Shown piece by piece: positions 1-15,472 of a stretch of DNA of 16,753 bases (its first letter is position 1; each line of letters opens with the position of its first letter). The notes under the pieces are model-generated. The model searched no databases. It was not told where the DNA came from and was given only the letters and a program-made list of their open reading frames with translations. Both the position numbers and the translations under genes were made by a program. Origin of the DNA: a virus (lineage: Duplodnaviria > Heunggongvirae > Uroviricota > Caudoviricetes); the IMG/VR virus record IMGVR_UViG_2778261300_000003; one strand, given 5' to 3'.

Positions 1-273
1 ATAGTTAAATGCGATGTTTTTGACGGTGTTTTCCGCGTTACCAGCAGCGTTAACGGTGATGGTGTGTCCATGTGAGCCAATCGCAACGGAGTGCGTATGA
101 GCACCAATATCCATATTCATAACCTGTACATCATCGCCGGATGACTGCATTTCCTCTTCCCATTCTGCCACCCGCTGCGCTATCTCTGCGGCACTCCCGG
201 ATATATCCGGCTCACGCCCCAGAATCAGGGCCAGTTCATCAAGCCGTTTCAGATTTTGCTCTTTCGTTGCCAT
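1..273 (-). CDS. FI-like DNA packaging protein, N-terminal 91 codons (C-terminus runs off the window start)
   Basis: Minus-strand frame open from ATG at 273-271 to position 1 (checked codon by codon, no stop). Translation [42 protein letters not shown] resembles the lambda gpFI N-terminus as recalled; it sits directly downstream of the capsid gene as in lambda. Confidence 0.45.
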
Positions 274-298
274 ATCAGCCCCCTGTGAAAAAAGACAC

Positions 299-315
299 GG
301 GGGCATTTCGCCCCC
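299..315 (-). terminator. GC hairpin plus T-run downstream of the capsid gene (possible intrinsic terminator)
   Basis: Plus strand gggggcatttcgccccc forms a 6-bp GC stem with 5-nt loop; on the minus strand it is followed after 4 nt by a TTTTTT run. Lies between the capsid stop (325) and the FI-like start (273). Confidence 0.35.
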
Positions 316-324
316 GCTCACGGA

Positions 325-1353
325 TTATTTCACCTGTACCACCACAAACTCATCCGGGTCCGGCAACACCATCAGCGGCGCGGACTGCGTCATGGTAAAT
401 TCACGGGCGGGATCCCCTACCGTCAGCCAGTGTTTCGGATAACGGGAAGATGCCACCACACCTTCGGACAACGCCTGAGCATCCTGAATGGCACCGTAAC
501 AACGGATCCCATCTGCAGCAGTATTCCCCAGAACCAGCATGCCATCTGGAAGATAACGTTTTTCGATACCGTCTTCTGCTATATAAGACGTTTTCGCCAC
601 CACAATGGCCAGATCGCCGTAATACCCCTTGAAGGACACCACTGCGCCCAGATCTTTCACTGCCGTTTCGAGTTGAGAATTTGAACCGCGACGGGTATCC
701 AGTTTTTCGCGGAACAGCTTAAAACCATTCAGAAGACGCCAGACGGTACCGTCCATAATGGCAATATTCACAAGACCGCTGGCCTGGTCGCAGTAGAGGT
801 CAATATCATGTGTAGGATCGAACGTGTCACGATCCTGTTTTGACCACTCCTTACCACTACCCTGAGTGATGTTATTCTTCGTCGACCTGCCAAAATCGAC
901 CTCAATTTTCTCGAACTGGTCTCCTTCCATGGTGTATTTGCCATACAACACAGCATTTACCGCCTGCATTTCTTCCACCTGGACAATCGCGTGCTCTTCC
1001 TGTTTGAGGTTATCGGTAATGATACGCAGACGGCGGTAAGCCGGATCATTCAGTTGAGATGGATCTTCACCAGGAAGGCGCTCAACCGCCTGCTGGTAAT
1101 TAAATTCGTGTTTCGGCTTGACGTAGCCCGGACGCAACACGCGGGTTTCACCACCACGATGACGCAGCACTTTTCCTTCAACAACCGGGGAGACATAGGC
1201 CGCCACCGGCGTTTTTCCGGTAATTTTGTCCAGCATCACCTCTTCGGTATGGAAATTCACCGTACGGCGGAAAAACAGCTCCAGAAACAGCGCACGAAAT
1301 TTAACTTTTTGTTCGGTATAACCGAGTAACTGGCGGGTCGTAAACAATCCCAT
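325..1353 (-). CDS. Major capsid protein, lambda gpE family, apparently full length (342 aa)
   Basis: ATG at 1353-1351, TAA at 327-325. Translation MGLFTTRQLL...PGYVKPKHE...GNTAADGIRCYGAIQDA...DPAREFTMTQSAPLMVLPDPDEFVVVQVK aligns along its length with lambda gpE as recalled. Upstream SD-like aaagga. Confidence 0.9.
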   Translation of the reverse strand: MGLFTTRQLLGYTEQKVKFRALFLELFFRRTVNFHTEEVMLDKITGKTPVAAYVSPVVEGKVLRHRGGETRVLRPGYVKPKHEFNYQQAVERLPGEDPSQLNDPAYRRLRIITDNLKQEEHAIVQVEEMQAVNAVLYGKYTMEGDQFEKIEVDFGRSTKNNITQGSGKEWSKQDRDTFDPTHDIDLYCDQASGLVNIAIMDGTVWRLLNGFKLFREKLDTRRGSNSQLETAVKDLGAVVSFKGYYGDLAIVVAKTSYIAEDGIEKRYLPDGMLVLGNTAADGIRCYGAIQDAQALSEGVVASSRYPKHWLTVGDPAREFTMTQSAPLMVLPDPDEFVVVQVK

Positions 1354-1410
1354 AAATCAGTTCCTTTCATTCAGAAATCAGTCAGGCCACCGCGGTGGCC
1401 TGATAACGTG

Positions 1411-1563
1411 TTACGGCAGCGCCGCGTGACTCAGGGCACTGCCAGCAAAGGCGTTGGCCTTTTTGTGTTCATCCACACTTTCAGGCCAGTGGATTGCCTC
1501 CGTCGCAAAGGTTCCCGACTTGTAATACGTCAGCGCCGTCTCTGTGCCGTCAAGCGGCAGTAT
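1411..1563 (-). pseudogene. Head decoration protein (lambda gpD-like), C-terminal fragment only
   Basis: Minus-strand frame open 1563 to 1414, stop TAA at 1413-1411, no start codon. Translation ...[42 protein letters not shown] matches the gpD C-terminus (TLTFYKSGTF...AFAGTAISIV) as recalled. N-terminal two thirds missing. Confidence 0.6.
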
Positions 1564-1979
1564 TTACGCTGTAATGTCAACGGCACACGCACAAGTATCC
1601 CCGAAATCTCCTGTGCCACACGTTGCAGAATGAAGGTAAACAGTTCAGTTTCCAGCACTACTCCGTCTTCACGGGCATTTTTCAGTTCCTGCGCATCTGC
1701 CTGCGCTTTTGTGAGCCTGTAGCGTTCATAGTCAATGGTGCCGGGTTGTAAATCTGACTCCGCTGCCGCACGCAAATCGTCCAGTTCTTTGCGGAGCTTT
1801 TCGTTTTCGATATCAGTTTCCCTCTGCGCATACCACTGAATTGCCATGGCAGTATCAAATACAGATTCAATGCCCTTACTACCTTTGGAGGCGCAAGGGA
1901 GTCCCTGAGACTGCCAGCGTTCAATCGTCCGCGGGTCCACGTTGAAAATTTCGGCAAGCCTCTTTTTATTAACCTTCAT
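1530..1979 (-). CDS. Terminase small subunit Nu1 homologue (NohA/NohD-like), C-terminally truncated at a deletion junction
   Basis: ATG at 1979-1977. [28 protein letters not shown]...[47 protein letters not shown] matches lambda Nu1 over about 140 residues, then diverges (CRLTAQRRR) and stops where the D fragment begins in another frame. Confidence 0.8.
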
Positions 1980-2200
1980 GAAAACAACCCATTATCAAAT
2001 ACAAGGCCCGACATGAAAACGCCAGAAAAAGGCATTTTCGGACACTTTCATGTCGGACCTTTACGGATAAAATATTAAAAAAAACAAAAAGTTATATTCG
2101 AGAAGTACCGACACGATTTTCCCTGAAAAATTTTCATAAATAGTGAAAAACCGCGAGGTCGCCGCCCCGTAACCTGTCGGATCGCCGGAAAGGACCCACA
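1980..2200 (-). other. cos site: cosB (between Nu1 start and cosN), cosN cohesive-end sequence at 2156-2167, cosQ side to the right
   Basis: Plus strand 2156-2167 aggtcgccgccc is the reverse complement of the lambda 12-nt cohesive end GGGCGGCGACCT. Flanking sequence (ttttcataaatagtgaaaaaccgcg | aggtcgccgccc | cgtaacctgtcgg) matches the reverse complement of the circularised lambda cos junction as recalled. Confidence 0.75.
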
Positions 2201-2366
2201 AAATGATAATAATTATCATCTACATGTCACAACGTGCATCTACGCCATCAAACCACGTCAAATAATCAATTATGACGCAGGTATCGTATTAATTGATCCG
2301 CATCAACTTAACGTAAAAACAACTTCAGACAATACAAATCAGCGACACTGAATACGGGGCAACCTC

Positions 2367-2600
2367 ATGTCAACGAAGAACAGAACCCGCAGAACAACAA
2401 CCCGCAACATCCGCTTTCCTAACCAAATGATTGAACAAATTAACATCGCTCTTGATCAAAAAGGGTCCGGGAATTTCTCAGCCTGGGTCATTGAAGCCTG
2501 CCGCCGGAGACTGTGCTCAGAAAAAAGAGTTTCTCCTGAAGCAAACAAAGAAAAGAGTGACATTACTGAATTGCTCAGAAAACAGGTCAGACCAGATTGA
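2367..2600 (+). CDS. ynfO: YnfO-like small protein (77 aa), possible ribbon-helix-helix DNA-binding fold
   Basis: ATG at 2367; translation MSTKNRTRRTTTRNIRFPNQMIEQINIALDQKGSGNFSAWVIEACRRRL... Basic N-terminus followed by a strand/helix/helix pattern. Position next to cos matches the small ORF at the lambda right end and K-12 Qin ynfO (from memory). Confidence 0.55.
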   Translation: MSTKNRTRRTTTRNIRFPNQMIEQINIALDQKGSGNFSAWVIEACRRRLCSEKRVSPEANKEKSDITELLRKQVRPD

Positions 2601-2657
2601 AGCAATTTAGATAATCGTGCAGACTACGCCCCCTCATATCACATGGAAGGTTTATCT

Positions 2658-3068
2658 ATGGATCAGGTAGTCATTTTTAAACAAATATTTGATAAAGTTC
2701 GAAACGATTTAAACTATCAATGGTTTTATTCTGAGCTAAAACGTCACAATGTCTCACATTACATTTACTATTTAGCCACAGAGAATGTTCATATTGTATT
2801 AAAAAATGATAATACAGTGTTATTAAAGGGCCTAAAAAACATTGTGTCTGTCAAATTTTCAAAGGATAGGCATCTTATAGAAACGACCTCTAATAAGCTG
2901 AAATCCAGAGAGATCACATTTCAGGAATACAGAAGAAACCTTGCTAAAGCAGGAGTTTTTCGGTGGGTTACAAATATCCACGAACAAAAAAGATATTACT
3001 ATACCTTTGATAATTCATTACTATTTACTGAAAGCATCCAGAAAACTACACAGATCTTACCACGCTAA
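2658..3068 (+). CDS. DUF1398-family protein (YdfO/YbcV-like)
   Basis: ATG at 2658 with SD GGAAGG 8 nt upstream (the ORF track starts earlier at 2643). Translation [47 protein letters not shown]... resembles K-12 prophage YdfO/YbcV as recalled. Confidence 0.65.
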
Positions 3069-3219
3069 ACCATAACGTCCGGCTTCTCTCACTCCTGAGC
3101 CGGACTGCATTGGTTTAATAAAAACCATCAACAATTGTGATTTAGATATTCGGAACCATTCAAATATAACAAAACCCCGTAAAAACGAGGTTTATGGATA
3201 AATTTTATTATTGAATACA

Positions 3220-3396
3220 TCAGATTAAATTAATCTTGACATCATAGCTTTCAAGACCCGTCATTTTTTCCCGTGCGGTAAACTGAATACTGGTAACTTC
3301 TTTCCCGGTCTTTTTCTTAAGTTCAATAATTTTTTTTGTTATATATTCAGAAATATCTGCTTCTGCTTTTGTTTTTAAGTTTTCAATATTCATCAT
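3220..3396 (-). CDS. gnsB: GnsA/GnsB-family small protein (58 aa), not in the supplied ORF track
   Basis: Hand-translated minus strand: ATG at 3396-3394, TGA at 3222-3220; MMNIENLKTKAEADISEYITKKIIELKKKTGKEVTSIQFTAREKMTGLESYDVKINLI. Closely resembles GnsA/GnsB (about 57 aa) as recalled. Confidence 0.6.
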   Translation of the reverse strand: MMNIENLKTKAEADISEYITKKIIELKKKTGKEVTSIQFTAREKMTGLESYDVKINLI

Positions 3397-3564
3397 TTCC
3401 TCTTTTAGTCTGTTATGACTTTCCAGTTACACAGTAAGTCGATTATATGGTGCAAACGTGTAAAAGATAAGATGAAACATCGCAATAATCAACATACGAT
3501 AGTCTAAATTTTACACAAACAGACAAAGAGAATTTTCCTGAATTATCAATGCAATAGCATCAAA

Positions 3565-3795
3565 TCAACTCAAGAGCCTTATTGCTGCTTCCACAATTTC
3601 TTCTGAAGTAACATGTCGATCCGCGGCTACATAAATGACTTTATGATCTCCGGTCAGAGATGGAAACCCTGCGGCCATTACAGTAAGGTGTGTTTTTTCG
3701 CCATTTGGATATTCACGCATGATGGTGTTAACTCCAGTCATCGCTGGCACTACCACTGCTGGTTCAGAGTTAAAAAAAACTATGATTTTTTTCAT
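3565..3795 (-). CDS. Hypothetical small protein (76 aa); positionally equivalent to K-12 Qin ynfN, identity not established
   Basis: ATG at 3795-3793 (the ORF track start at 3837 is a TTG); MKKIIVFFNSEPAVVVPAMTGVNTIMREYPNGEKTHLTVMAAGFPSLTGDHKVIYVAADRHVTSEEIVEAAIRLLS. No strong SD. Family not recognised with confidence. Confidence 0.4.
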   Translation of the reverse strand: MKKIIVFFNSEPAVVVPAMTGVNTIMREYPNGEKTHLTVMAAGFPSLTGDHKVIYVAADRHVTSEEIVEAAIRLLS

Positions 3796-3839
3796 GATGT
3801 TACCGTAGTATGTGAGTATCCATCGAATAGACACCAAGC

Positions 3840-3875
3840 AAAAAAGCTCCCGAAGGAGCCTTCATTTTCACTTTT
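3840..3875 (-). terminator. Short hairpin with flanking A/T runs, candidate terminator about 200 nt downstream of the cspI-like gene
   Basis: gctcc cgaa ggagc (3846-3859), a 5-bp stem with 4-nt loop, preceded by aaaaaa on the plus strand, which is UUUUUU after the stem on the minus strand. Confidence 0.3.
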
Positions 3876-4066
3876 TCAAATCCAACGACAGACGGCTGGC
3901 ATTTAAGTATTGTGAAATATTATCAAATGTAATCATCATTGATTTACAAAAGATACATTTTGCCCCGAAAGGATTCATGTCAGAAACATCAAAAGATGAT
4001 GTTCTATACTGGGAACCATGACAACACGGGCATCTAAAGTGAATATGGTTTGTAATATTGTCTACC

Positions 4067-4279
4067 TCAAAGCGCCACTACATGAACAGCGGCAGGACCT
4101 TTAGGTCCGTTCTCAATACCAAATTCAACTTCCTGATTCTCAGTTAATGTTTTGAAATCGTTGCTCTGAATTGCTGAGAAATGGACAAACACATCTTTGC
4201 TGCCATCTTTCGGCGTGATGAAACCAAAACCTTTTTCAGGGTTAAACCATTTCACTAAACCAGTCATTTTGTTAGACAT
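4067..4279 (-). CDS. cspI: Cold-shock protein, CspA family (CspI-like)
   Basis: ATG at 4279-4277; [53 protein letters not shown]... carries the RNP1 motif KGFGFI and RNP2 VFVHF of the cold-shock domain. Confidence 0.85.
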
Positions 4280-4640
4280 AATTATTACCTTTTGAAGAAA
4301 TTAGCCCTTGGGCAGAATGGTCCGAAAAAAATATCAGAGAGAAAAACCAACAAGGAAATCTCAAGAGGTACAAATAATAAAATTATAACAATGACTGCTT
4401 CAGATAAATTTGTAACAAACCAGAACACCATTAACGCATGATTAACCACCCATAGCAAGGATTACTTTTGTAAAGAAAAACACAGCAATGAAAGAATAGC
4501 TTTATTTATTAATAAAACGTGTCATTCTGATTAAGACCTTTTATCTTACCCTTAAGATTTCAGGAATTTTGGCTCATGGAAGAGTCCTTTTTATTTAAAT
4601 TTTACATTCCGCGATGTAAATGTTCCGATTTAATATTACC

Positions 4641-5664
<1,024 letters not shown>

Positions 5665-5668
<4 letters not shown>

Positions 5669-5976
5669 AGATATTTATGATGAGGACGCTCGTGCTTATT
5701 GGCAGGATTTTCAATCTTAAAGGAGTACTGATGCTGCAGATAAGACTCAACTTTTTCTGACAATTTTTCTGCTACTTCCAGGAAGACTTGCCGGACGCTC
5801 CTTCTGGCTGCTGCCTCATAAAACTCCAGCGCAGCTCCTTCAACACGGTCCATGGCGACATACAGGTCAAAAATTTCACCGTCAAAGCGTTCTTTGTCCT
5901 GTAAGGCTACAGTTACCGTAACTTTATTCTCAAAATTACGGACTCCTTTCACAACCAGTTCATAGTCTTGAGTCAT
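5665..5976 (-). CDS. DUF1327-family protein (YdfR-like) between holin and endolysin
   Basis: ATG at 5976 with SD GGAGAG; 103 aa MTQDYELVVKGVRNFENKVTVTVALQDKERFDGEIFDLYVAMDRVEG... Stop overlaps the endolysin start. Family name from recollection. Confidence 0.55.
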
Positions 5977-5980
5977 TGGA

Positions 5981-6196
5981 TTACTCTCCTCTCGCAGCCT
6001 TACGCCTGTCTTCTTTAATCTTGAAATAAAGATTTGTCAGATACGTCAGCAGGCCAAAAACCAGGCTACCCAGCACACCGATTGCAGCCCACTGTGACGG
6101 AGTTACTTTATCGAGTAACTGCAATGCCCAGAAACCAGCATTACCCGCCGATGTGCCATAGGCAACACCTGTTGTTAACTTATCCATTGATTTCAT
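5981..6196 (-). CDS. Class II holin, phage 21 S21-type pinholin with dual-start motif
   Basis: [71 protein letters not shown]: two TM segments, Met-Lys-Ser-Met dual start (ATGs at 6196 and 6187), SD GGGGTGAGG upstream; very similar to S21 as recalled. The track ORF 5981..6271 begins at an upstream start with a non-holin-like leader. Confidence 0.8.
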
Positions 6197-6415
6197 ATCC
6201 TCACCCCGATGTACACGGATGGTGCAATATGTTTGAAAAGATCGGAGTCTACGGGGTAGTTTTGACAGCACACGTTGTTCTCAACGGCGCTAAAAAAACA
6301 TACACATTAAAAATGTGGGTAATTATTTTGAAAGAAAGTCATATATAAAATAATAATACGAGAAATGTTTTCATATTTAGTGTACTGTATACGGCCATTT
6401 ATACAGGAAAAGCCT

Positions 6416-6586
6416 ATGTCAGAACGTAAAAACTCAAAATCACGCCGTAATTATCTCGTTAAATGTTCCTGCCCAAACTGCACCCAAGAGTCAGAACACA
6501 GTTTTTCAAGAGTACAAAAAGGTGCCCTTTTGATCTGCCCTCATTGCAACAAAGTATTCCAGACAAATCTTAAAGCTGTAGCCTGA
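6416..6586 (+). CDS. Small zinc-ribbon protein (56 aa), possibly YnfU-like
   Basis: ATG at 6416 with AGGAAA upstream; MSERKNSKSRRNYLVKCSCPNCTQESEHSFSRVQKGALLICPHCNKVFQTNLKAVA has two Cys pairs (CSCPNC ... CPHC) typical of a zinc ribbon. Oriented opposite to the late genes. Confidence 0.45.
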   Translation: MSERKNSKSRRNYLVKCSCPNCTQESEHSFSRVQKGALLICPHCNKVFQTNLKAVA

Positions 6587-6644
6587 TTGATTTTATTAGT
6601 AACAAGTATTTTTTATATTTTAATAAAATATTTAAAGCAGATAA

Positions 6645-6670
6645 TAAAAAACCCGCCTGAGCGGGTTTGA
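6645..6670. terminator. Bidirectional intrinsic terminator
   Basis: aaaaaa-aacccgc-ctga-gcgggtt-tga: a 7-bp GC-rich stem with 4-nt loop, flanked by an A-run on the left (U-run on the minus strand, strong) and TTT on the right (weaker). Confidence 0.55.
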
Positions 6671-6949
6671 GATTGTGGTGCTTTTTGTGGGAGTCATCCA
6701 CTTACGCACTTTGTTTTGCCATGCCAGCAGTTAGCTTCTGCTGTAAAACTATTCATGCAGCAAACCTGCACTTCACCACAATGGTTAGCATACTTTTCCT
6801 GATTAAGATTTTGCCAAATATGCTAGCCATTGTTTCATGTATTGGACCTCCTTACTTTTTATTAAAGAGATCCAATATTCACTACTCTGTCCGTATCTCT
6901 ACTCAGGCCTCAGCCTTCTTCGTTATCGTATACAGACGAGCGATGAATT

Positions 6950-7165
6950 TTAATCAGTAATGATGACATTTGCTGCTGCAGGACCTTTAGCACCACTCTC
7001 TATAGAGAAGGTAACCTTTTGACCTTCAAATAAGGTTCGATAATTATCATTCTGAATCGCAGAAAAATGCACAAACACATCTTTACTACCATCAACAGGA
7101 GAAATAAAGCCGAAACCTTTATCAGCGTTAAACCATTTTACTAAACCAGTCATTTTATTTGACAT
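6950..7165 (-). CDS. cspB: Cold-shock protein, CspA family (CspB-like)
   Basis: ATG at 7165; [71 protein letters not shown] with RNP1/RNP2 motifs. Confidence 0.85.
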
Positions 7166-7465
7166 TCTACATTCCTTAACTTGAGCCTTTCGGCATAAAT
7201 GGTTTGCATAACAGAAACGACTTCGTACTTAATTGGAGAGACTCAAAGAAGGAATAAGTGAATAACACCTGAAATGAGAACTGCTTTAGTAAACTACTTC
7301 GTATATCGTCTGTTCTTCAAACCGACGCAATCATTAACGCATAGTTGAACATATGAAGCAATGTTTATTTTAGACATCCAGCCATCTTCAACCCCATCAA
7401 AAAACTATAGCTTTCTTCAGGAACGTGTGTATAGTGCGCCAAGTTATCAGTATTAAGGAATTTTT

Positions 7466-7678
7466 TTGTCCCGTAAAATGACAGGAATTGTCAAAACCTT
7501 TGACGGCAAAAGCGGCAAGGGTCTTATCACCCCATCCGATGGTCGTATCGATGTCCAGCTTCATGTTTCAGCGCTCAATCTCCGCGATGCAGAAGAAATT
7601 ACCACCGGATTACGCGTGGAATTTTGCCGGATAAATGGTCTGCGTGGCCCTTCAGCTGCCAATGTTTATCTTTCATGA
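7466..7678 (+). CDS. cspF: Cold-shock-domain protein, CspF/CspH-like (divergent from cspB)
   Basis: [70 protein letters not shown]. The first codon at 7466 is TTG with SD AAGGA 7 nt upstream; the first ATG (7478) is too far from the SD. Confidence 0.8.
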
Positions 7679-7970
7679 GCTATATTAAAGCTTTAATTTC
7701 AGGCCCCATCGGATCACACATGGAGAGTTTTTATGAATAACCCCGTCTGTCTTGATGACTGGTTGATTGGCTTTAAAAGCTTATGCTGTACTTTGGCCGT
7801 AATAGCTCTGCTAATAATATAATAAGCAGACTCATTGTGTTTAGGGACATTGTCCTGGAAGAAAACATTTTAAACATCAGGCAAATAACCAAGTCACCAG
7901 CTAAATAATAAGTTAACAGACATGAGTCCCGGGATGAGATTCAACATTACCATTGCCCCATTTAAAGCAC

Positions 7971-7995
7971 AAAACCCGCTCATCAGCGGGTTTTC
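7971..7995. terminator. Bidirectional intrinsic terminator; on the minus strand a tR'-like terminator of the short late-promoter transcript
   Basis: aaaacccgct-catc-agcgggtttt followed by ctactttttc on the plus strand; the reverse complement gives the stem followed by uuuugugcuuu. Confidence 0.6.
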
Positions 7996-8034
7996 TACTT
8001 TTTCTTAACGTCGGGTATACAAAGCCCATCGTTG

Positions 8035-8070
8035 AAAAAATTTTATCCATATTTTTTGAAAAATGCAAAC
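8035..8070 (-). promoter_or_regulatory. Candidate late promoter (pR'-like), with expected Q-utilisation region, immediately downstream of Q
   Basis: Minus strand reads TTGCAT (plus 8063-8068), a 17-nt spacer, then TAAAAT (plus 8040-8045). It starts about 30 nt after the Q stop and about 60 nt upstream of the terminator at 7971-7995, the classic Q / pR' / tR' arrangement. Sigma-70 match judged by eye only. Confidence 0.4.
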
Positions 8071-8099
8071 ATCATGTCGCCATCTTCAGCAAAAATCAT

Positions 8100-8852
8100 T
8101 TATCTCGTCACCTTCCTCAATTGCGCTTCCGCGTATGCTTCTTCCTGCCAGCACTTTGTTACCAGTTTACCAATGACGTCCGCATACCCCTTATACCACT
8201 GATAATCGGTCAGGTCTGGTACCAGCTTCTGGACATGACGTCGTGCCAGCGTGGTCGGTAAACGACTAAACCGGTTTCCATTACAACGCCCACAAATCTT
8301 ATATACCGGTACGCCATGAAACCGGGTTCTTTTTTCATCCAGAACAATCCCTTTACCCTTACACCCTCTGCACGCTGTGCTGGCTTCGCCCTTACCATGG
8401 CAATGCTGACATAGTTCCTTCACCCATTCTTCCTTGATTACAGATTCCCCGCGTCTGTAGTGTTTCACCACTTCGCGCAATACATTATAAAATCCCGTAC
8501 CTGAACAATGCTCACAGCGAGCCTTACTTGCCGCAGACCTGGAGTAATCAGCAAAGGCAAAACTCACGAGGTAAGGAATAATCTGTAACCGGATTTCTTC
8601 ACTCAATTTGTTCAATGTCGGGTTATCCAGTGCCATCGCGTAATTTAGCAGGCCTTCAATCGCAAACTGAGGGTCCTGAACACCAACTTTTGCCAGAAAT
8701 AAGGCCAACCCAAGTGGTGCTTTCGACTGCACCATCCCCTGCGCTGCCATTACATCCGTAATTGTTAAACAACCGGTGCCTGTCGCTGGAGCGTCATCGC
8801 TCAATTTTGGAGATTTTGGGGAGTAATATTTTGGTAAGGCTTCAAGGTTCAT
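8100..8852 (-). CDS. Late-gene antitermination protein Q (Q21/Q82/QuuQ-like), 250 aa
   Basis: ATG at 8852 with SD GGAG 8 nt upstream (the track ORF starts at a TTG at 8882). Cys/His-rich zinc-binding region (CEHCSGTG ... CQHCHGKG ... CRGCKGKG ... CGRCNG) and position just upstream of the late promoter and lysis genes. Confidence 0.8.
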   Translation of the reverse strand: MNLEALPKYYSPKSPKLSDDAPATGTGCLTITDVMAAQGMVQSKAPLGLALFLAKVGVQDPQFAIEGLLNYAMALDNPTLNKLSEEIRLQIIPYLVSFAFADYSRSAASKARCEHCSGTGFYNVLREVVKHYRRGESVIKEEWVKELCQHCHGKGEASTACRGCKGKGIVLDEKRTRFHGVPVYKICGRCNGNRFSRLPTTLARRHVQKLVPDLTDYQWYKGYADVIGKLVTKCWQEEAYAEAQLRKVTR

Positions 8853-8865
8853 GCTCGTTCTCCAC

Positions 8866-9915
8866 TTACGCCAGTACGCCAATTGCCAGCGCGCGATCGA
8901 TAAAACGAAATATCAGCTCCAGTTGGGAGCCATACTTATCTTCAAATGCCACTGTATCCGTATGCAGCTCGTTGTGATGCTTTCTGCACAAAGGCAACAC
9001 AAAGAGATCATGTGCTTTTGTTCCCATTCCGCCCTGCCCGTGACCAATCAGATGATGCGGATCGTCGGCTGGCATACCGCAGCAAGCACACGGCTGTGTC
9101 TTAACCCAACGTGTGTATTTCTCCTTAACCCAGCGGCGACGTTTAGGCAGCTTCATGAAAGATTCCGGAGACTCTGGATCAACGGTGATGCTTACCACCG
9201 TCTTTTCCTGTGGTGATTTTTGTTGCTGGTGGGCGTAAGGCAACGGTGCAAGATTTTTTGTGCGTTGTTTCAATATGCTGGTGGCGGTCTGCTCTCCCGG
9301 TACGATGTCGCTTTCGCGGTACACCGAGCAGATTTTTTCCGCTGGTAATCCCAGCGAACGACGCGATACAGCCTCAGGTAGTGCATCCACCACCTGATTG
9401 CAGACCGCCCACCAGGATAATTCAGCCAAAGATAATTCCCGCTCCTGCGTACCGCTTATTGCGTGACGGATGACGTCAATCACCCATGCTGTCAGATTTT
9501 GTTGAGCAAGCAGCTCCAGTGATTCCGATGTCTGGTCACGCAGTTGGTTGTCGCAGTGCCAGCACAACACCATTGCGCCGGTACCATAACGGTGAATGAC
9601 TGTTTCAGTGTGATGGTAATCGCCATTAGGCCACTGGCAGGATGTAACATGACGTAATAGCCAGTCGGACAATGCGCCAACGCCGCCAGCAGCACGAATC
9701 ACCCGTTCGTTACTAAAAAACGGCAGCAATGTTTTGTCTTCCGCCAGCGGCTGGCGAACGGCAGGAACGACTCCGGATGGCAGATTACGCATGCTTTTTG
9801 GTTCCGGTTCCACCAGCACTCGAGGATTATGAAATATCTGTATGGATTCACGGCCCGGCTTAAGGACCACCAGCCCAAGCTCAGGCACCAGAACAGGTCT
9901 AAGTAATACCCGCAC
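8866..9915 (-). CDS. YdfU-like (DUF968) protein with C-terminal Cys/His HNH-like motif
   Basis: Frame open from 9954, but the 9954 start is a GTG with no SD; a GTG at 9915 is preceded by GGAGG (4-nt spacer) and gives 349 aa. C-terminal region has CACCG...DDPHHLIGHG...HDLFVLPLCRKHHNELH, resembling HNH/zinc-finger nuclease motifs. Family name from recollection. Confidence 0.55.
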   Translation of the reverse strand: MRVLLRPVLVPELGLVVLKPGRESIQIFHNPRVLVEPEPKSMRNLPSGVVPAVRQPLAEDKTLLPFFSNERVIRAAGGVGALSDWLLRHVTSCQWPNGDYHHTETVIHRYGTGAMVLCWHCDNQLRDQTSESLELLAQQNLTAWVIDVIRHAISGTQERELSLAELSWWAVCNQVVDALPEAVSRRSLGLPAEKICSVYRESDIVPGEQTATSILKQRTKNLAPLPYAHQQQKSPQEKTVVSITVDPESPESFMKLPKRRRWVKEKYTRWVKTQPCACCGMPADDPHHLIGHGQGGMGTKAHDLFVLPLCRKHHNELHTDTVAFEDKYGSQLELIFRFIDRALAIGVLA

Positions 9916-10205
9916 GTTACCTCCAGATCCGTTGCTGGAAAGTGCGGGACGCACGTGGTGGGCGTTCGGAATAAGGCAGCCTGACAGAGATTATCCAGTG
10001 CCGATATCTTCACTCGATTAACGCCAAGCGCTCGCTGATCAACCGCGCCACCTTCATCTGTGACACGCTGAACATCGATGTTCGGGCGCTCTTTCAAAGC
10101 CCAGAATGCTTCAGTGATTAATATCGTCGCCTGCTCCTGTGTCATTCCTGGTCGACATATCCAGGCATCCAGAGCCTCACGAGCCTGTTCAGGAGTGATT
10201 TTCAT
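9699..10205 (-). CDS. rem: Rem-like protein; ORF here is 168 aa and overlaps the YdfU-like start in another frame
   Basis: ATG at 10205; N-terminal about 80 residues (MKITPEQAREALDAWICRPGMTQEQATILITEAFWALKERPNIDVQRVTDEGG...) look protein-like and Rem-like; the C-terminal half (W/C-rich, CGYYLDLFWCLSLGWW...) looks like out-of-frame translation of the ydfU 5' region. Confidence 0.45.
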   Translation of the reverse strand: MKITPEQAREALDAWICRPGMTQEQATILITEAFWALKERPNIDVQRVTDEGGAVDQRALGVNRVKISALDNLCQAALFRTPTTCVPHFPATDLEVTCGYYLDLFWCLSLGWWSLSRAVNPYRYFIILECWWNRNQKACVICHPESFLPFASRWRKTKHCCRFLVTNG

Positions 10206-10416
10206 TGTTCAACCGCCCCGCCCGCTTCGTCTTACGATATTCGTCATAAACTTTGGGATCATACTGAAGCTCCCCGCCAGATGCCTCCTGTAGACGCATC
10301 GCGCGACCTTCAGGAACCAGTATCCCCCAAGCAGCAACACTTGCCAGTCTCACTCCTGCGGCATTGGCAAGCTTTGTTTTGCTGCCAAAAAAAGTAATTG
10401 CGTCAGCTTTAAGCAT
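10189..10416 (-). CDS. dicC: Cro-type repressor, DicC-like (75 aa)
   Basis: ATG at 10416 with SD AGGAGG 5 nt upstream (the track start at 10419 is a TTG). MLKADAITFFGSKTKLANAAGVRLASVAAWG...EGRAMRLQEASGGELQYDPKVYDEYRKTKRAGRLNNENHS, with an HTH in the N-terminus; divergent from the DicA-like gene. Confidence 0.75.
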   Translation of the reverse strand: MLKADAITFFGSKTKLANAAGVRLASVAAWGILVPEGRAMRLQEASGGELQYDPKVYDEYRKTKRAGRLNNENHS

Positions 10417-10428
10417 CAAAGCCTCCTA

Positions 10429-10448
10429 TTGTTAGACTTTTCTAACAT
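10429..10448. promoter_or_regulatory. Operator-like inverted repeat in the dicC-dicA intergenic region
   Basis: TTGTTAGA-cttt-TCTAACAt, a near-perfect 8-bp inverted repeat with 4-bp spacer, between the divergent repressor genes and overlapping the dicC SD region. Confidence 0.5.
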
Positions 10449-10496
10449 TATTGTGCGCGGGATACCTAAGTCAAGAAAAATTAGAATTACCTAACT

Positions 10497-10904
10497 ATGG
10501 ATACAAGAACCCTAGGCCAGCGAGTTCTGGCGCGACGAAAAGAATTACGCTTAACACAACGAGAAGCTGCGCGCCTCGCTGGGGTTGCTCACGTCACAAT
10601 TTCACAATGGGAAAGAGACGAAACCCAGCCAGTCGGAAAACGATTGTTTGCTTTAGCGGATGCTCTGAAGTGCTCACCTACATGGCTAATGTTTGGTGAC
10701 GAAGACAAGGCACCAGTGCCGGCACAAGAACTTCATGTGGAAACAGAGCTAACTCCCAACCACAAAGAATTGATCGAATTATTCGATGCTCTTCCATCTT
10801 CCGAGCAGGAAGCCTTGCTGTCTGAAATGCGCGCAAGAGTAGAAAACTTCAACAAACTCTTCGAAGAAATGCTTAAAGCGCGTAAAAATAAATCAATAAA
10901 ATAA
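10497..10904 (+). CDS. dicA: Prophage repressor, DicA-like (XRE-family HTH, cI analogue)
   Basis: MDTRTLGQRVLARRKELRLTQREAARLAGVAHVTISQWERDETQP... N-terminal HTH (QREAARLAGVAHVTISQWE); C-terminal SPTWLMFGDEDK...EMRARVENFNKLFEEMLKAR resembles K-12 DicA as recalled. Confidence 0.85.
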   Translation: MDTRTLGQRVLARRKELRLTQREAARLAGVAHVTISQWERDETQPVGKRLFALADALKCSPTWLMFGDEDKAPVPAQELHVETELTPNHKELIELFDALPSSEQEALLSEMRARVENFNKLFEEMLKARKNKSIK

Positions 10905-10939
10905 CATTCTTTTCAAGTGATTAGTTGCGCCCACTCTTT

Positions 10940-10959
10940 TTGTTAGACTAATCTAACAA
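10940..10959. promoter_or_regulatory. Perfect operator palindrome upstream of the dicB-operon promoter
   Basis: TTGTTAGA-ctaa-TCTAACAA, a perfect 8-bp inverted repeat with the same half-site as the 10429-10448 element. A weaker related repeat lies at about 10978-10994. Confidence 0.55.
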
Positions 10960-10965
10960 AAAACA

Positions 10966-10994
10966 CTTGCCTCTTATGTTAGGTTATTCTAAAT
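10966..10994 (+). promoter_or_regulatory. Candidate promoter of the ydfABC-dicF-dicB operon (pL analogue)
   Basis: TTGCCT (10966-10971), 17-nt spacer, TAAATT (10989-10994), directly downstream of and overlapping the operator-like repeats. By-eye sigma-70 match only. Confidence 0.35.
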
Positions 10995-11072
10995 TACTTT
11001 CCATCAAGACACCGCACGGTGTTCTCAGCAAACAGTTCCGCTACCCCGGCGTTAAGGGGAAATGAGGTCAGC

Positions 11073-11228
11073 ATGGATACTATCGATCTTGGCAACAGCG
11101 AATCTCTGGTGTACGGCGTGTTTCCAAACCAGGACGGCACGTTCACCGCAATGACGTATACCAAAAGCAAAACGTTTAAAACCGAAAATGGTGCCCGTCG
11201 CTGGCTGGAAAGAAACTCAGGTGAGTGA
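11073..11228 (+). CDS. ydfA: YdfA-like small protein (51 aa)
   Basis: ATG at 11073 with SD GAGGT; MDTIDLGNSESLVYGVFPNQDGTFTAMTYTKSKTFKTENGARRWLERNSGE. The track ORF starts upstream at 11019. Confidence 0.65.
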   Translation: MDTIDLGNSESLVYGVFPNQDGTFTAMTYTKSKTFKTENGARRWLERNSGE

Positions 11229-11229
11229 T

Positions 11230-11358
11230 ATGGATTTCGACACAATCATGGAAAAGGCTTACGAAGAATACTTCGAAGGCCTTGCCGAAGGCGAAGAAGC
11301 TCTCAGCTTCAGTGAGTTTAAACAGGCGCTTTCCAGTTCGGCAAAATCTAACGGCTGA
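11230..11358 (+). CDS. ydfB: YdfB-like small protein (42 aa), not in the ORF track
   Basis: Hand translation: ATG at 11230, 2 nt after the ydfA stop; MDFDTIMEKAYEEYFEGLAEGEEALSFSEFKQALSSSAKSNG; TGA at 11356-11358. Confidence 0.5.
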   Translation: MDFDTIMEKAYEEYFEGLAEGEEALSFSEFKQALSSSAKSNG

Positions 11359-11387
11359 TAAGCGAAACAGCACCGCGAGGAATCAGT

Positions 11388-11606
11388 ATGCAGAAACGAG
11401 AACCCGTCATCATCGCGCCAGACTATACCGATGATGAACTTTATGAGTGGATGCGCCAGAAAATTAATGCAGCGCAGGATCTGAAATGGGCTAATGAAGC
11501 CAGGGCTAAGCAGGCTGAAAATCTGTCCGCTCTGGAGCAGGATATCACCAATCTGGAAAAAGCAGCGGCATTAAGCATTGCCAGAATGATTACATACCCG
11601 CGTTAG
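11388..11606 (+). CDS. ydfC: YdfC-like protein (72 aa)
   Basis: ATG at 11388 with SD GAGGAA; MQKREPVIIAPDYTDDELYEWMRQKINAAQDLKWANEARAKQAENLSALEQDITNLEKAAALSIARMITYPR. Confidence 0.65.
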   Translation: MQKREPVIIAPDYTDDELYEWMRQKINAAQDLKWANEARAKQAENLSALEQDITNLEKAAALSIARMITYPR

Positions 11607-11946
11607 TAGCTAATCAACAAAGCTAAGGTTAGTAATTAAGGAGTTCTCCACGGGTGAGGTGGAGTGCGTGCGCCGGACACGGGTGCGCATCCGGAACTGA
11701 CAGTTTACTGAAAGGATATTTCCCTGAAAAGTCAGACCATAACGCGAAAGCGCACGGCGAGGTAGCTGGTTCATAGATAGCCTGTCGTTAAATTTTCGTC
11801 GACCGTGCGCTTCCGGTTGTGGCAACCCGCGAAATGGCGCGGCGGTAAGTATGGCGGGGTTATTCCTTCCCCGTTGAGGACACCGGGTTGTCAGGTTGAC
11901 CATACGCTTAAGTGACAACCCCGCTGCAACGCCCTCTGTTATCAAT

Positions 11947-12004
11947 TTTCTGGTGACGTTTGGCGGTATCAGTTTTACTCCGTGACTGCTCTGCCGCCCT
12001 TTTT
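11947..12004 (+). ncRNA. dicF: DicF small RNA (ftsZ-targeting antisense sRNA)
   Basis: tttctggtgacgtttggcggtatcagttttactccgtgactgctctgccgcccttttt matches DicF as recalled; it ends in a GC stem (ggcgg...ccgcc) plus U-run and lies between ydfC and dicB. The upstream 330 nt is GC-rich and structured. Confidence 0.7.
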
Positions 12005-12173
12005 AAAGTGAATTTTGTGATGTGGTGAATGCGGCTGAGCGCACGCGGAACAGTTAAAACCAAAAACAGTGTTATGGGTGGATTCTCTGTATCCGGCGTT
12101 AATTGTTAACTGGTTAACGTCACCTGGAGGCACCAGGCACTGCATCACAAAATTCATTGTTGAGGACGCGATA

Positions 12174-12362
12174 ATGAAAACGTTATTACCAAACGTTAAT
12201 ACGTCTGAAGGTTGTTTTGAAATTGGTGTCACTATCAGTAACCCAGTATTTACTGAAGATGCCATTAACAAGAGAAAACAAGAACGGGAGCTATTAAATA
12301 AAATATGCATTGTTTCAATGCTGGCTCGTTTACGTCTGATGCCAAAAGGATGTGCACAATGA
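12174..12362 (+). CDS. dicB: Cell-division inhibitor DicB (62 aa)
   Basis: ATG at 12174 with SD GAGGA; MKTLLPNVNTSEGCFEIGVTISNPVFTEDAINKRKQERELLNKICIVSMLARLRLMPKGCAQ matches K-12 DicB as recalled. The track ORF starts upstream at 12069. Confidence 0.85.
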   Translation: MKTLLPNVNTSEGCFEIGVTISNPVFTEDAINKRKQERELLNKICIVSMLARLRLMPKGCAQ

Positions 12363-12550
12363 ATTCAGCATTTGTGCTTGTTCTGACAGTTTTTCTTGTT
12401 TCCGGAGAGCCAGTTGATATTGCAGTCAGTGTTCACAGGACAATGCAGGAGTGTATGACTGCAGCAACCGAACAGAAAATTCCCGGTAACTGTTACCCGG
12501 TCGATAAAGTTATTCACCAGGATAATATCGAAATCCCGGCAGGTCTTTAA
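12359..12550 (+). CDS. ydfD: YdfD-like small membrane/lysis protein (63 aa)
   Basis: ATG at 12359 overlaps the dicB stop (ATGA). MNSAFVLVLTVFLVSGEPVDIAVSVHRTMQECMTAATEQKIPGNCYPVDKVIHQDNIEIPAGL with an N-terminal hydrophobic segment. Confidence 0.75.
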   Translation: MNSAFVLVLTVFLVSGEPVDIAVSVHRTMQECMTAATEQKIPGNCYPVDKVIHQDNIEIPAGL

Positions 12551-12642
12551 AACAGTTCCGTAATAAATATCCGGTTTCATTCTTATATGCCAGCAATGGC
12601 AGGGATTTGTTCATCCTTAAATCTGTCATGAGGTTAAAACAA

Positions 12643-15114
12643 ATGAGTAAAGTCTTTATTTGCGCCGCTATTCCTGACGAACTGGCAACAAGGGAAGAAG
12701 GCGCTGTGGCTGTAGCCACAGCCATTGAAGCTGGCGACGAACGCCGTGCTCGAGCAAAATTTCACTGGCAATTCCTGGAACATTATCCGGCTGCTCAGGA
12801 CTGCGCTTATAAATTTATTGTCTGCGAGGATAAACCTGGCATACCCCGCCCTGCCCTCGATTCATGGGATGCTGAATATATGCAGGAAAACCGCTGGGAT
12901 GAGGAGTCTGCTTCTTTTGTCCCGGTTGAGACTGAATCCGATCCGATGAACGTCACTTTTGACAAGCTGGCCCCTGAAGTACAGAACGCTGTCATGGTTA
13001 AGTTCGACACATGTGAAAACATCACCGTTGATATGGTTATTAGCGCACAGGAATTGTTGCAGGAAGACATGGCAACATTCGACGGACATATCGTTGAAGC
13101 GTTGATGAAAATGCCAGAAGTTAACGCCATGTATCCGGAGCTTAAGTTGCACGCCATTGGGTGGGTTAAGCATAAATGTATTCCTGGTGCTAAATGGCCC
13201 GAAATTCAGGCAGAGATGCGCATCTGGAAAAAACGTCGCGAAGGTGAACGCAAGGAAACCGGAAAATACACGTCTGTTGTTGATCTCGCCCGCGCCAGAG
13301 CCAATCAACAGTACACTGAAAATTCAACAGGAAAAATCAGCCCGGTCATTGCTGCCATTCATCGCGAATACAAGCAGACATGGAAAACACTGGATGACGA
13401 ACTGGCCTACGCTCTCTGGCCTAGTGATGTGGATGCCGGAAACATTGACGGCAGCATCCATCGCTGGGCAAAAAAAGAAGTTATCGACAACGACCGCGAA
13501 GACTGGAAGCGTATCTCGGCATCAATGCGCAAACAGCCTGATGCCCTTCGCTACGACCGCCAAACTATTTTTGGCCTTGTCCGTGAGCGTCCGATCGACA
13601 TTCACAAAGATCCCGTAGCACTGAACAAATATATCTGCGAATACCTGACGACAAAGGGCGTGTTTGAGAATGAAGAAACAGACCTGGGCACTGTTGATGT
13701 TCTCCAGTCATCAGAAACACAAACTGATGCAGTGGAAACTGAGGTATCTGATATCCCAAAAAATGAAACCGCGCCGGAAGCTGAACCATCTGTAGAGCGT
13801 GAGGGGCCGTTCTATTTCCTCTTCGCAGATAAGGACGGAGAAAAATACGGTCGCGCAAACAAACTCTCTGGTCTGGATAAGGCACTGGCTGCTGGCGCCA
13901 CTGAAATCACAAAAGAAGAATATTTTGCCCGAAAAAATGGCACATACACGGGCTTACCGCAAAATGTAGATACCGCTGAAGATTCAGAACAACCAGAGCC
14001 GATAAAAGTTACCGCTGACGAAGTAAACAAAATTATGCAGGCAGCCAATATCAGCCAGCCTGACGCCGATAAGTTGCTTGCTGCATCACGTGGTGAATTT
14101 GTTGAAGGGATTAGTGACCCGAATGATCCGAAATGGGTTAAGGGGCTCCAGACCCGCGATTCTGTGAACCAGAACCAGCATGAATCGGAACGGAACTACC
14201 AAAAAGCGGAACAAAACAGTCCAAATGCGTTACAAAACGAGCCAGAAACGAAACAGCCTGAACCAGTAGCGCAACAGGAAGTGGAAAAAGTCTGCACCGC
14301 CTGCGGTCAGACCGGCGGCGGCAACTGCCCTGATTGTGGCGCGGTGATGGGCGACGCAACATACCAAGAAACATTCGATGAAGAGTATCAGGTTGAAGTT
14401 CAGGAAGATGATCCGGAGGAAATGGAAGGCGCTGAACATCCACACAAGGAGAACACTGGCGGCAATCAGCATCACAATAGCGATAATGAAACTGGCGAGA
14501 CGGCAGATCACCCAATTAAGGTGAACGGTCATCACGAAATCACATCCACCAGCAGGACGTGTGACCATCTAATGATCGACCTTGAAACCATGGGAAAAAA
14601 TCCTGATGCCCCGATCATCTCAATAGGTGCAATATTTTTCGATCCGCAAACCGGAGATATGGGACCGGAATTTAGTAAGACTATCGATCTGGAAACTGCT
14701 GGCGGAGTCATTGATCGGGACACCATTAAATGGTGGCTTAAGCAATCACGCGAAGCGCAATCTGCCATTATGACCGATGAAATCCCGTTAGATGATGCAC
14801 TGTTACAATTGCGAGAATTTATCGACGAAAACTCCGGTGAATTTTTTGTTCAGGTTTGGGGAAATGGAGCCAACTTCGACAACACGATTTTGCGCCGTTC
14901 ATACGAACGGCAGGGGATCCCCTGCCCGTGGCGTTACTACAACGATCGCGATGTACGCACAATCGTTGAGCTGGGGAAAGCCATAGACTTCGATGCCAGA
15001 ACGGCTATTCCATTCGAAGGTGAGCGCCATAATGCACTTGATGACGCCCGTTACCAGGCAAAATACGTTTCAGTTATCTGGCAAAAACTGATCCCGAGTC
15101 AGGCTGATTCTTAA
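12643..15114 (+). CDS. Large exonuclease: RecE/YdfE-like N-terminal region and zinc-ribbon linker fused to a C-terminal DEDDh (DnaQ-like) 3'-5' exonuclease domain (823 aa)
   Basis: ATG at 12643 with GAGG upstream (track start 12607 is a TTG). CTACGQTGGGNCPDCG zinc ribbon around 14294-14340. C-terminal domain (about 14560-15114) carries Exo I MIDLETMG, Exo II WGNGANFD and Exo III HNALDDARY motifs, read directly from the translation. The N-terminal two thirds resemble the Rac RecE N-terminal region and K-12 YdfE as recalled. Confidence 0.8.
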   Translation: MSKVFICAAIPDELATREEGAVAVATAIEAGDERRARAKFHWQFLEHYPAAQDCAYKFIVCEDKPGIPRPALDSWDAEYMQENRWDEESASFVPVETESDPMNVTFDKLAPEVQNAVMVKFDTCENITVDMVISAQELLQEDMATFDGHIVEALMKMPEVNAMYPELKLHAIGWVKHKCIPGAKWPEIQAEMRIWKKRREGERKETGKYTSVVDLARARANQQYTENSTGKISPVIAAIHREYKQTWKTLDDELAYALWPSDVDAGNIDGSIHRWAKKEVIDNDREDWKRISASMRKQPDALRYDRQTIFGLVRERPIDIHKDPVALNKYICEYLTTKGVFENEETDLGTVDVLQSSETQTDAVETEVSDIPKNETAPEAEPSVEREGPFYFLFADKDGEKYGRANKLSGLDKALAAGATEITKEEYFARKNGTYTGLPQNVDTAEDSEQPEPIKVTADEVNKIMQAANISQPDADKLLAASRGEFVEGISDPNDPKWVKGLQTRDSVNQNQHESERNYQKAEQNSPNALQNEPETKQPEPVAQQEVEKVCTACGQTGGGNCPDCGAVMGDATYQETFDEEYQVEVQEDDPEEMEGAEHPHKENTGGNQHHNSDNETGETADHPIKVNGHHEITSTSRTCDHLMIDLETMGKNPDAPIISIGAIFFDPQTGDMGPEFSKTIDLETAGGVIDRDTIKWWLKQSREAQSAIMTDEIPLDDALLQLREFIDENSGEFFVQVWGNGANFDNTILRRSYERQGIPCPWRYYNDRDVRTIVELGKAIDFDARTAIPFEGERHNALDDARYQAKYVSVIWQKLIPSQADS

Positions 15115-15186
15115 TGTTCAACTGTCGCCGGTTGTGACTGGTATTCTGCAACCGGCGCTCGTCTGATGTAAGAGATAAAGAAATCG

Positions 15187-15438: not shown

Positions 15439-15472
15439 CTAAAAGCCACACTAACTAATGAGAGAAGTTGAA

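Follow-up and report, generated by a model that had tools for sequence, protein, structure and literature searches.

A deletion scar in a cryptic lambdoid prophage of Escherichia coli and a reused breakpoint in the phage 21-type small terminase gene

Introduction

Why should a prophage remnant keep its cohesive end site (cos), the front part of its small terminase gene and a complete major capsid gene when its large terminase, portal and protease/scaffold genes are gone? The question is raised by the Caudoviricetes record IMGVR_UViG_2778261300_000003, a stretch of 16,753 nucleotides that we call the window. It is identical to the start of contig NOMQ01000003.1 of Escherichia coli assembly GCA_002518655.1, over 16.7 kb that begin 2 bases from the contig end. 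Near its left end a deletion junction, J1, joins the small terminase gene Nu1 (gene 1 in phage 21, encoding gp1) to a remnant of the decoration gene D (shp in phage 21). We find it likely that J1 marks a deletion that took place recently in a cryptic lambdoid prophage undergoing decay. An earlier note, made from the letters of this DNA alone, overlooked the unusual feature of the locus, the breakpoint itself. The position of the left breakpoint is non-random: it is a hotspot precise to the nucleotide, and from it deletions of varied length run rightwards to TA(Y) sites.

The deletion junction and the head gene block

By BLAST, window positions 2167..1561 match positions 1..607 of phage 21 (OL657228) with 99.5% identity and 3 mismatches, and positions 1562..107 match 6144..7599 with 99.8% identity and 3 mismatches. 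The two matches overlap in a TA at 1561-1562, which is common to Nu1 (phage 21 606-607) and D (6144-6145). The deletion comprises phage 21 coordinates 608-6145, 5,538 bp. With a slash marking the break, gene 1 of phage 21 reads ...CAGCGTAAATA/TCCGGAC, its shp gene reads ...CATACTGGTA/CTGCCGC, and the window reads ...CAGCGTAAATACTGCCGC. Lambda was rejected as reference for the head block, with about 68% identity against 99.5-99.8% for phage 21. The DNA missing from the window is present in an intact prophage of strain ARS-C101, between flanks 100% and 98.9% identical to the window. In brief, it encodes the gp1 C-terminus, gp2, gp3, the portal, the protease/scaffold and two thirds of shp.

J1 fuses codon 140 of gp1/Nu1, out of frame, to the last 49 codons of shp/D. 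The resulting open reading frame (ORF; 1530..1979, minus strand) encodes a truncated small terminase of 149 aa, Nu1', made of gp1/Nu1 residues 1-140 and nine unrelated residues, CRLTAQRRR, before the stop. Its match to Pfam Phage_Nu1 (E=1.8e-72) covers profile positions 1-145 of 164. According to the domain map of PMC9026076, Nu1' retains the DNA-binding domain, a winged helix-turn-helix (HTH), and the helical oligomerisation region, and the 42 residues that it lacks are the C-terminal part of about 40 residues that binds the large terminase subunit (TerL). Nu1' is identical across 54 aa to PDB 7LWR, the phage 21 DNA-binding domain, and its match to PDB 6HN7_B covers residues 1-98. The shp/D remnant (1411..1560, minus strand) consists of codons 67-115 and the stop and matches the Pfam HDPD profile at positions 74-114 of 116; it lies in another frame than Nu1' and is thus not translated as a fusion.

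Downstream of the remnant, the major capsid gene (325..1353, minus strand; phage 21 gene 7, homologue of lambda E) is complete, with 342 aa covering Phage_cap_E profile positions 1-329 of 329. Its product differs from phage 21 gp7 by a single substitution, L190Q, and its DNA is 100% identical to that of the ARS-C101 prophage. A G+C-rich, terminator-like stem-loop between D and E (1382..1403, minus strand) is native to phage 21 and lies within the 99.8% block.

Much of what the earlier note had read at J1 stands. It had described about 140 codons of Nu1 homology and then a change of frame into D, and the count proves to be 140 residues exactly. The junction falls within the range that it gave, around 1545-1565, and can now be placed at 1561/1562. 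The D remnant, put at about 45 codons, has 49, and the close relative is phage 21, not lambda as had been assumed. That one deletion took the Nu1 C-terminus, large terminase, W, portal, protease/scaffold and most of D agrees with the 5,538 bp missing relative to phage 21, and the intact relative has no contiguous Nu1-D but carries the missing 5.5 kb there. As the note had also held, cos, the DNA-binding part of Nu1 and a full-length E survive, and the element is unable to package itself.

A reused left breakpoint in phage 21-type Nu1

A protein search with the 149 aa ORF gave many fusions in which the Nu1 part ends at ...VPLTLQRKY (residue 140) and the continuations differ. One more, an in-frame fusion of Nu1(1-140) to the portal protein, came from a look-up of clusters. 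Comparing the junction contigs with intact IMG/VR phages, we mapped the partner sites and found the left base to be common, to the nucleotide, to about 15 distinct junctions, in three Nu1 alleles and several prophage families. The left side is ...CAGCG(T or C)AAATA/ in every case, and the intact site continues TCCGGA. As a 20-mer the left flank is [CT]TGACATTACAGCGTAAATA, and the sequence around phage 21 coordinate 607 is AAATATCCGGA. On the deleted side, all mapped partner sites (13/13) end in TA, a dinucleotide that makes up 3.1% of positions in the region and occurs 19 times in the gene.

The partners are scattered over the phage map. In the window the partner is D (CTGGTA/C). Elsewhere it is the portal gene (P0129, AGTTA/C), the nuclease domain of the large terminase, the A homologue (L032, GGGATA/C), two alleles of H (L024 and L027, GGCTA/T), the 5' end of lom (L029, GTGTA/T) or its middle (L022, GGGTA/T), stf (L170, GGGTA/T; L183, CAT or TGA followed by TA/C), the I/J region (L180, GGCTA/T), a sheath-like gene of a Shiga toxin 2e (Stx2e) prophage (L020, GTGTA/T), a baseplate-region gene (L031, GATTA/T) and a tail-fibre-like gene (L168 and L176, AGATA/A). 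In two further cases, the tail fibre of a heat-labile enterotoxin (LT)-II prophage (L175) and a third Nu1 allele (L171), the partner site was not mapped. Some of the junctions are nested: the partner of L168 lies inside L020, and L029, L022, L183 and L170 form a series at the potB locus.

Only two other breakpoints inside 21-type Nu1 were found among the 120 clusters listed. The left flank continues intact in 129/129 IMG/VR copies. Complete-genome records holding the site number 687, of which 664 are intact and 23 hold it only broken; both broken records that were sampled stop at coordinate 607. Junctions at the same left base are also present in complete long-read genomes. No deletions running leftwards from the Nu1 site were found in IMG/VR, a collection biased towards intact phages. 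At the equivalent place lambda-type Nu1 reads CGTTTTCCGGAA, without TA, and no such hotspot was seen there. A deletion hotspot in a terminase gene is not described in the searchable literature, and this nucleotide-precise, repeatedly used breakpoint is, as far as could be found, new.

Two observations on individual prophages may be added. The Stx2e prophages at yciE-trp in porcine strains (L168 and L176, from ETEC6333 and ETEC1748, and L020, L031 and L032) all break at the Nu1 hotspot and end at four different places; given these breaks, the toxin genes sit in phages unable to package. For strain Nissle 1917, an older assembly (L169; CP007799.1 1348691-1351403) shows cos-Nu1-A' tandemly repeated, some of the copies being partial; this probably stems from the assembly of phage reads that end at cos. 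A supposed Nu1 insertion in CP007799 turned out to be this tandem repeat of the cos-Nu1 region.

Further junctions and a second hotspot in the tail fibre gene

Two more deletion junctions were mapped in the window. J2 (104..109) joins FI, ...GGATAT/CCGGGA, to the side tail fibre gene stf, ...GTAGGTAT/TGGTGC, with TAT as microhomology. The C-terminus of FI, FII, every tail gene and most of stf are lost. The FI'-'stf fusion ORF (1..273, minus strand; Pfam Packaging_FI) carries FI codons 1-56 at 107-273 and a tail fibre C-terminal segment at 1-106. It stays in frame across 106/107, ends in 40 codons that form the C-terminal tip of the side tail fibre and has its 3' end beyond the window; its translation was taken from L001, an identical (100%) remnant described below. 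In relatives tfaD comes after the stf tip, and the contig end 2 bases left of the window falls at the start of the tfa repeat. J3 (10004..10006) has ATA as microhomology, GCCGATA/G being joined to CAAATA/T. Compared with the Qin prophage of UC4224, about 7.8 kb is gone, with rem, hokD, relBE, ydfV, flxA, ydfW, insertion sequence (IS) remnants, a methyltransferase gene, DUF977, O and part of ydaT. A fourth junction is found in L001 at 7296/7297, from just past intD into rzpD (CCTGTA/G joined to GATTA/TATCCGC). All four junctions cross in a microhomology that contains TA.

The stf side of J2 (GGTAT/TGGTGCGCATACGCAC, ...RLA) is itself reused, which makes it the second hotspot for deletions. In other E. 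coli genomes 14 or more unrelated N-terminal fragments are joined to it (proteins P0172-P0254), among them lambda-type Nu1 (residues 16 and 35), lysozyme, holin, a ParB-like protein, a P27-type terminase and products of genes A, E, G, T and others. A few further stf fusions break 2-12 codons upstream. The reused site is the left edge of a conserved module made of the stf tip and tfa.

TATCCG was read directly at or next to the break in the Nu1 and FI genes of 21-type and in rzpD. With the breaks at lambda Nu1 codon 17 and in lambda E, which are placed from protein fusions (P0184, P0222) and where it presumably also lies, the sites number five, all independent. FI and gpT recombine with each other through GGATAT (P0153). 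The recurrence of TATCCG suggests a sequence preference beyond TA. It should be noted that TA does not hold as a universal rule: the A'-tfaD junction of DLP12 in strain K-12 shares a single T, an A-lom junction shares TAAC, and two gene A-stf fusions, as placed by us, use AT or CTG.

How a fixed end may arise

The geometry of the hotspot is that of a fixed end, variable downstream ends, one orientation and 2-4 nt of microhomology including TA, with no element left behind. The head gene block of phage 21/DLP12 type lost its 5,538 bp by illegitimate recombination across TA. In the mechanism that we prefer, a fixed or easily frayed 3' end may form at the boundary between the A/T run TAAATAT and CCGG, from a nick, from a replication pause with fraying or from a lost insertion sequence, and, using 2-4 nt of microhomology, could then pair again with TA(T) sites downstream. 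Alternatively, a TA-specific activity of transposase-like or nuclease type might be at work. In its strongest form, this alternative would make the TA at codon 140 the target of an enzymatic break, by a site-specific nick, a transposase-like activity or a defence nuclease recognising TATCCG, that repeatedly yields remnants of cos plus residues 1-140 of the small terminase subunit (TerS), raw material for decoys or proteins like Rpp of phage satellites. We consider this rather improbable.

Several sources of the fixed end were looked for. A transposon end was dismissed, there being no inverted repeat of the retained end within 1.8 kb, as was a hairpin or stall, the predicted folding of phage 21 570-670 being unremarkable on both strands (z = -0.95 and -0.59). 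By eye no Chi octamer lies beside either hotspot; no scan was made. Cleavage by a REP-associated tyrosine transposase (RAYT) came to mind from CCGGATA and from GTAG with a hairpin at the stf site. RAYT (TnpA-REP) cuts at a C/T dinucleotide next to GTAG plus hairpin (PMC8266576), and the breaks here follow TA, not C/T. The known IS30 hotspot of lambda, LHS at 33.2 kb, is unlike the Nu1 site.

An IS footprint, in which an IS enters at the Nu1 TA and is then removed by IS excision enhancer (IEE) or transposase with a variable length of adjacent DNA, up to downstream microhomologies, would account for the geometry (PMC9943667) and for microhomologies of 2-4 nt. IS30 has strong hotspots and generates duplications of 2 bp (PMC9333248), and several of the junction prophages are Stx or LT phages of pathotypes rich in IS629 and IEE. 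Deletions promoted by IEE next to an IS, and classical deletions between short homologies, also share the fixed end, the variable other end, the 2-4 nt microhomology and the absence of any element left. They differ in that no IS was found at the fixed end here, the microhomology always includes the same TA, and TATCCG lies beside the breaks. No IS was seen in the 129 IMG/VR copies, in 2 sampled complete genomes or in scans of metagenomes and GTDB; both sampled broken complete-genome records hold a single place, and the metagenome scan for non-intact continuations gave deletions only. The reading would further need repeated insertion at one nucleotide in three alleles, and the TA signature is also found at the tail fibre site and at other junctions. 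On balance we regard an IS footprint as unlikely.

The element and its prophage context

The element is a defective (cryptic) lambdoid prophage of DLP12/Qin type, with lambdoid gene order, high identity to DNA of known lambdoid phages and prophages and its essential lytic genes lost. Over positions 2127-16753 the identity to the Qin prophage beside rspB, taken across 251 complete E. coli genomes, is 99.3-99.7%. The genes on the plus strand are, in order, ynfO, ydfO, gnsB, ynfN, cspI, rzpQ, rrrQ, essQ, cspB/F, the Q antiterminator gene, ydfU, dicC/dicA, ydfABC, dicB, an exonuclease gene, xis and int. The phage map runs on the minus strand, and the J1 scar is at its late end. The holin, lysozyme and Rz-like genes are kept together with capsid gene E, and int and xis are intact at the far end; the window terminates in this Qin-type integrase, which in relatives abuts rspB. 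The three mapped deletions have removed essential lytic genes: large terminase, portal, protease/scaffold, tail genes and replication gene O.

The J1 block has another origin. Window positions 1-2503 are 100% identical to a block in L001, which together with L003 (two NCBI assemblies) carries it at the DLP12 locus, between argU/sfm and ompT. The order there is sfm, fimZ, intD, deletion, Rz1, bor, ybcV, ybcW, ylcI, cos, Nu1', 'D, E, FI', 'stf, tfaD, ybcY, ompT. After the fourth junction the content before cos in these relatives is int, Rz1, bor, ybcV, ybcW and ylcI only. A crossover zone inside ynfO/ylcI (2457..2503) separates the part identical (100%) to L001, on the left, from Qin-type sequence on the right. 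The J1 block thus belongs, by its sequence, to a remnant of DLP12/phage 21 type that is here joined to Qin. The joining is either homologous recombination between both prophages or an assembly mis-join via about 200 shared bases. If recombination, it could be a ~1 Mb inversion, which we consider because DLP12 and Qin are inverted in K-12. The YnfO protein was dropped as a marker of Qin/DLP12 chimeras, being too widespread (5,511 index blocks). In another genome (L015, 2919-4234) ynfO lies about 0.7 kb from FI and Nu1 through E are gone, a further independent scar that begins near cos.

The cos region itself is well preserved. The cohesive-end sequence cosN, GGGCGGCGACCT, at 2156..2167 (minus strand) is 100% identical to that of phage 21 and is the only copy in the window. 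The cosB (2002..2118, minus strand) is of phage 21 specificity, with R1 at 2002-2018, R2 at 2046-2061, the integration host factor (IHF) site I1 at 2082-2094 and R3 at 2103-2118. Each of cosN, R3, I1, R2 and R1 is 100% identical to the annotated phage 21 subsite, in keeping with the earlier note's reading of 2156-2167 and its flanks as similar to a functional cos; the region differs from phage 21 by just 2 bases, between I1 and R2. The heptamer GGGTCCT at 2191-2197 is presumably that of cosQ. The cosQ/R4 region, 2188..2199 (minus strand), was mapped from the R4 annotation of M81255. By sequence, cosQ, cosN and cosB (R3-I1-R2-R1) are present in the order and with the spacing correct for a cos of lambda/21 type. 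Just upstream of cosQ, at 2203-2230 (minus strand), a promoter-like site directed towards cos and Nu1' (GTGACA, 16 nt, TATCAT; 10/12 matches) was noted from its match to the consensus only.

Measured against the cos-terminase system of phage 21 (gp1/gp2, cosB-21), the window is alike in cosN, R3, I1, R2 and R1 and in gp1 residues 1-140, whose codons show only synonymous changes, and it is without the last 42 residues of gp1 and without gp2, portal, protease/scaffold and most of shp. Such a system would be recognisable by a terminase but is unable to make one. Given what is established for lambda, a phage 21-type terminase should still be able to cut such a cos, and infecting phages should be able to rescue the block through recombination. 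The most that a single cos in the chromosome could do is to initiate packaging that runs into its flanks.

Age, distribution and decay

J1 is rare. A sequence spanning it was found in 0/5,426 complete E. coli genomes, an exact 35-mer across it has no match in GTDB representatives, IMG/VR or JGI metagenomes, and the exact 149 aa product is on 5 contigs only. The earlier note's proposal to look for the junction in related genomes thus met with some success: the same junction was recovered from three NCBI assemblies and, in several runs, from Logan contigs. The remnant in L001 has lost nearly everything but the J1 block. The block does not differ at all from intact phage DNA (100% identity), so that the survival of E and cos is not a sign of selection, and the scar is probably neutral. 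In our preferred account of a recent scar, cos and the capsid gene would survive only because the deletions missed both and the time has been too short for point decay.

Some points weigh against plain neutral decay. The cos is fully intact. Random, purely neutral decay does not predict nucleotide-exact reuse of one breakpoint, and no insertion sequence, inverted repeat or unusual hairpin was found that would explain the fixed end. The nesting is what would be expected of a determinant in the retained left flank, and independence of some junctions within one prophage lineage is our interpretation. The truncation, moreover, takes almost exactly the TerL-binding domain and leaves a layout as for the Rpp of phage-inducible chromosomal islands (PICIs), cos and then a winged-HTH and oligomerisation protein of about 140-150 aa. 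Judged on these features, a selected function for Nu1', such as a decoy role, is possible.

Satellite, decoy and artefact

The earlier note had suggested a helper-packaged, satellite-like element. On such a reading cos would be kept so that a superinfecting helper of phage 21 type packages and transfers the remnant. The intact cosQ, cosN and cosB of phage 21 specificity and the intact int and xis would suit this, and lambda and phi80 do transfer islands naturally in a cos-dependent way (PMC6092414). The rest of the element argues otherwise. It has no replicon, O being deleted and no pri-rep being present among the genes of 2127-16753, all of which are Qin homologues, and nothing in the window resembles alpA or rpp. 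The window has a single cosN, whereas termination of lambda type requires a second cos, a downstream cosQ-cosN (PMC9026076). Lysis and capsid genes are present, and PICIs are without phage lysis and structural genes (PMC6092414, PMC9026076). Because the left part comes from the DLP12-locus block, the Qin int would probably be without its partner att site. Finally, the junction is rare with no sign of spread, and the L001 remnant keeps the same block with almost nothing else. We hold a satellite to be very unlikely and do not retain the suggestion.

A domesticated decoy, in which the truncated TerS is kept to poison or misdirect the terminase of incoming phage 21-type phages as an Rpp-like or dominant-negative protein, has parallels of its own, and such a benefit would account for the frequency of remnants that end at residue 140. 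[quoted passage not shown] Selection at the level of the protein is, however, unable to fix a breakpoint to one nucleotide. What follows residue 140 is arbitrary, be it junk, H, lom or portal in frame, or an immediate stop; each junction is rare, and the similarity to RppC is marginal (E=0.24). A decoy is doubtful in our view, and for J1 we keep to a scar of decay. That J1 is a short-read mis-join or annotation artefact might be thought from the start of the window 2 bases from a contig end and from the Qin/DLP12 crossover within a shared stretch of about 200 bp. The identical junction in three NCBI assemblies and in Logan contigs of several runs, the join through 2 shared bases, which a k-mer graph cannot mis-join, and the other same-base junctions in complete long-read genomes leave this a negligible chance.

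Comparison with known systems

The closest known systems are DLP12 and Qin of strain K-12, with the same gene content and probably the same loci (nohD-aaaD'-tfaD in DLP12; nohA fused to stfQ in Qin). DLP12 has the order sfm-argU-intD...bor-ybcV-ybcW-ylcI-cos-noh...tfaD-ybcY-ompT and Qin the order ynfO-ydfO-gnsB-cspI...dicB-intQ-rspB. As in the window, a cos and a Nu1 homologue lie beside a large morphogenetic deletion that ends in the tail fibre/tfa region. The cos/nu1 region retained in K-12 DLP12 is functional and recombines with infecting lambda (PMC3945230). The noh genes of K-12 are of lambda type and full length or nearly so, with junctions elsewhere; nohA breaks at residue 176. In contrast, the window block is of phage 21 type and has its break at residue 140, with E and part of FI preserved between two deletions.

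The cos PICIs of Gram-negative bacteria (EcCICFT073 and relatives) are similar in having a cos followed by a winged-HTH and oligomerisation protein of about 140-150 aa without the TerL-binding tail, and an integrase. Unlike the window, they have their own cos lacking cosB, an Rpp that is not a TerS fragment, alpA, a pri-rep replicon, no lysis or capsid genes and high-frequency transfer. The window has phage 21 cosB, a TerS fragment, capsid gene E and holin, lysozyme and Rz-like genes.

Implications

Taken as a single locus, J1 is prophage decay of an ordinary kind, and it would be wrong to list it as a new satellite. If deletions in lambdoid prophages keep starting from one base in the terminase gene and keep ending at one base in the tail fibre gene, the domestication of prophages would be partly channelled by sequence and not be random erosion alone. 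If true, this would explain why E. coli harbours remnants that are so alike, consisting of late genes, cos, a noh stub, the tail fibre tip and tfa. The hotspot is a defined and testable substrate for illegitimate recombination in vivo, and it offers a plausible origin for TerS-derived proteins without a TerL-binding tail.

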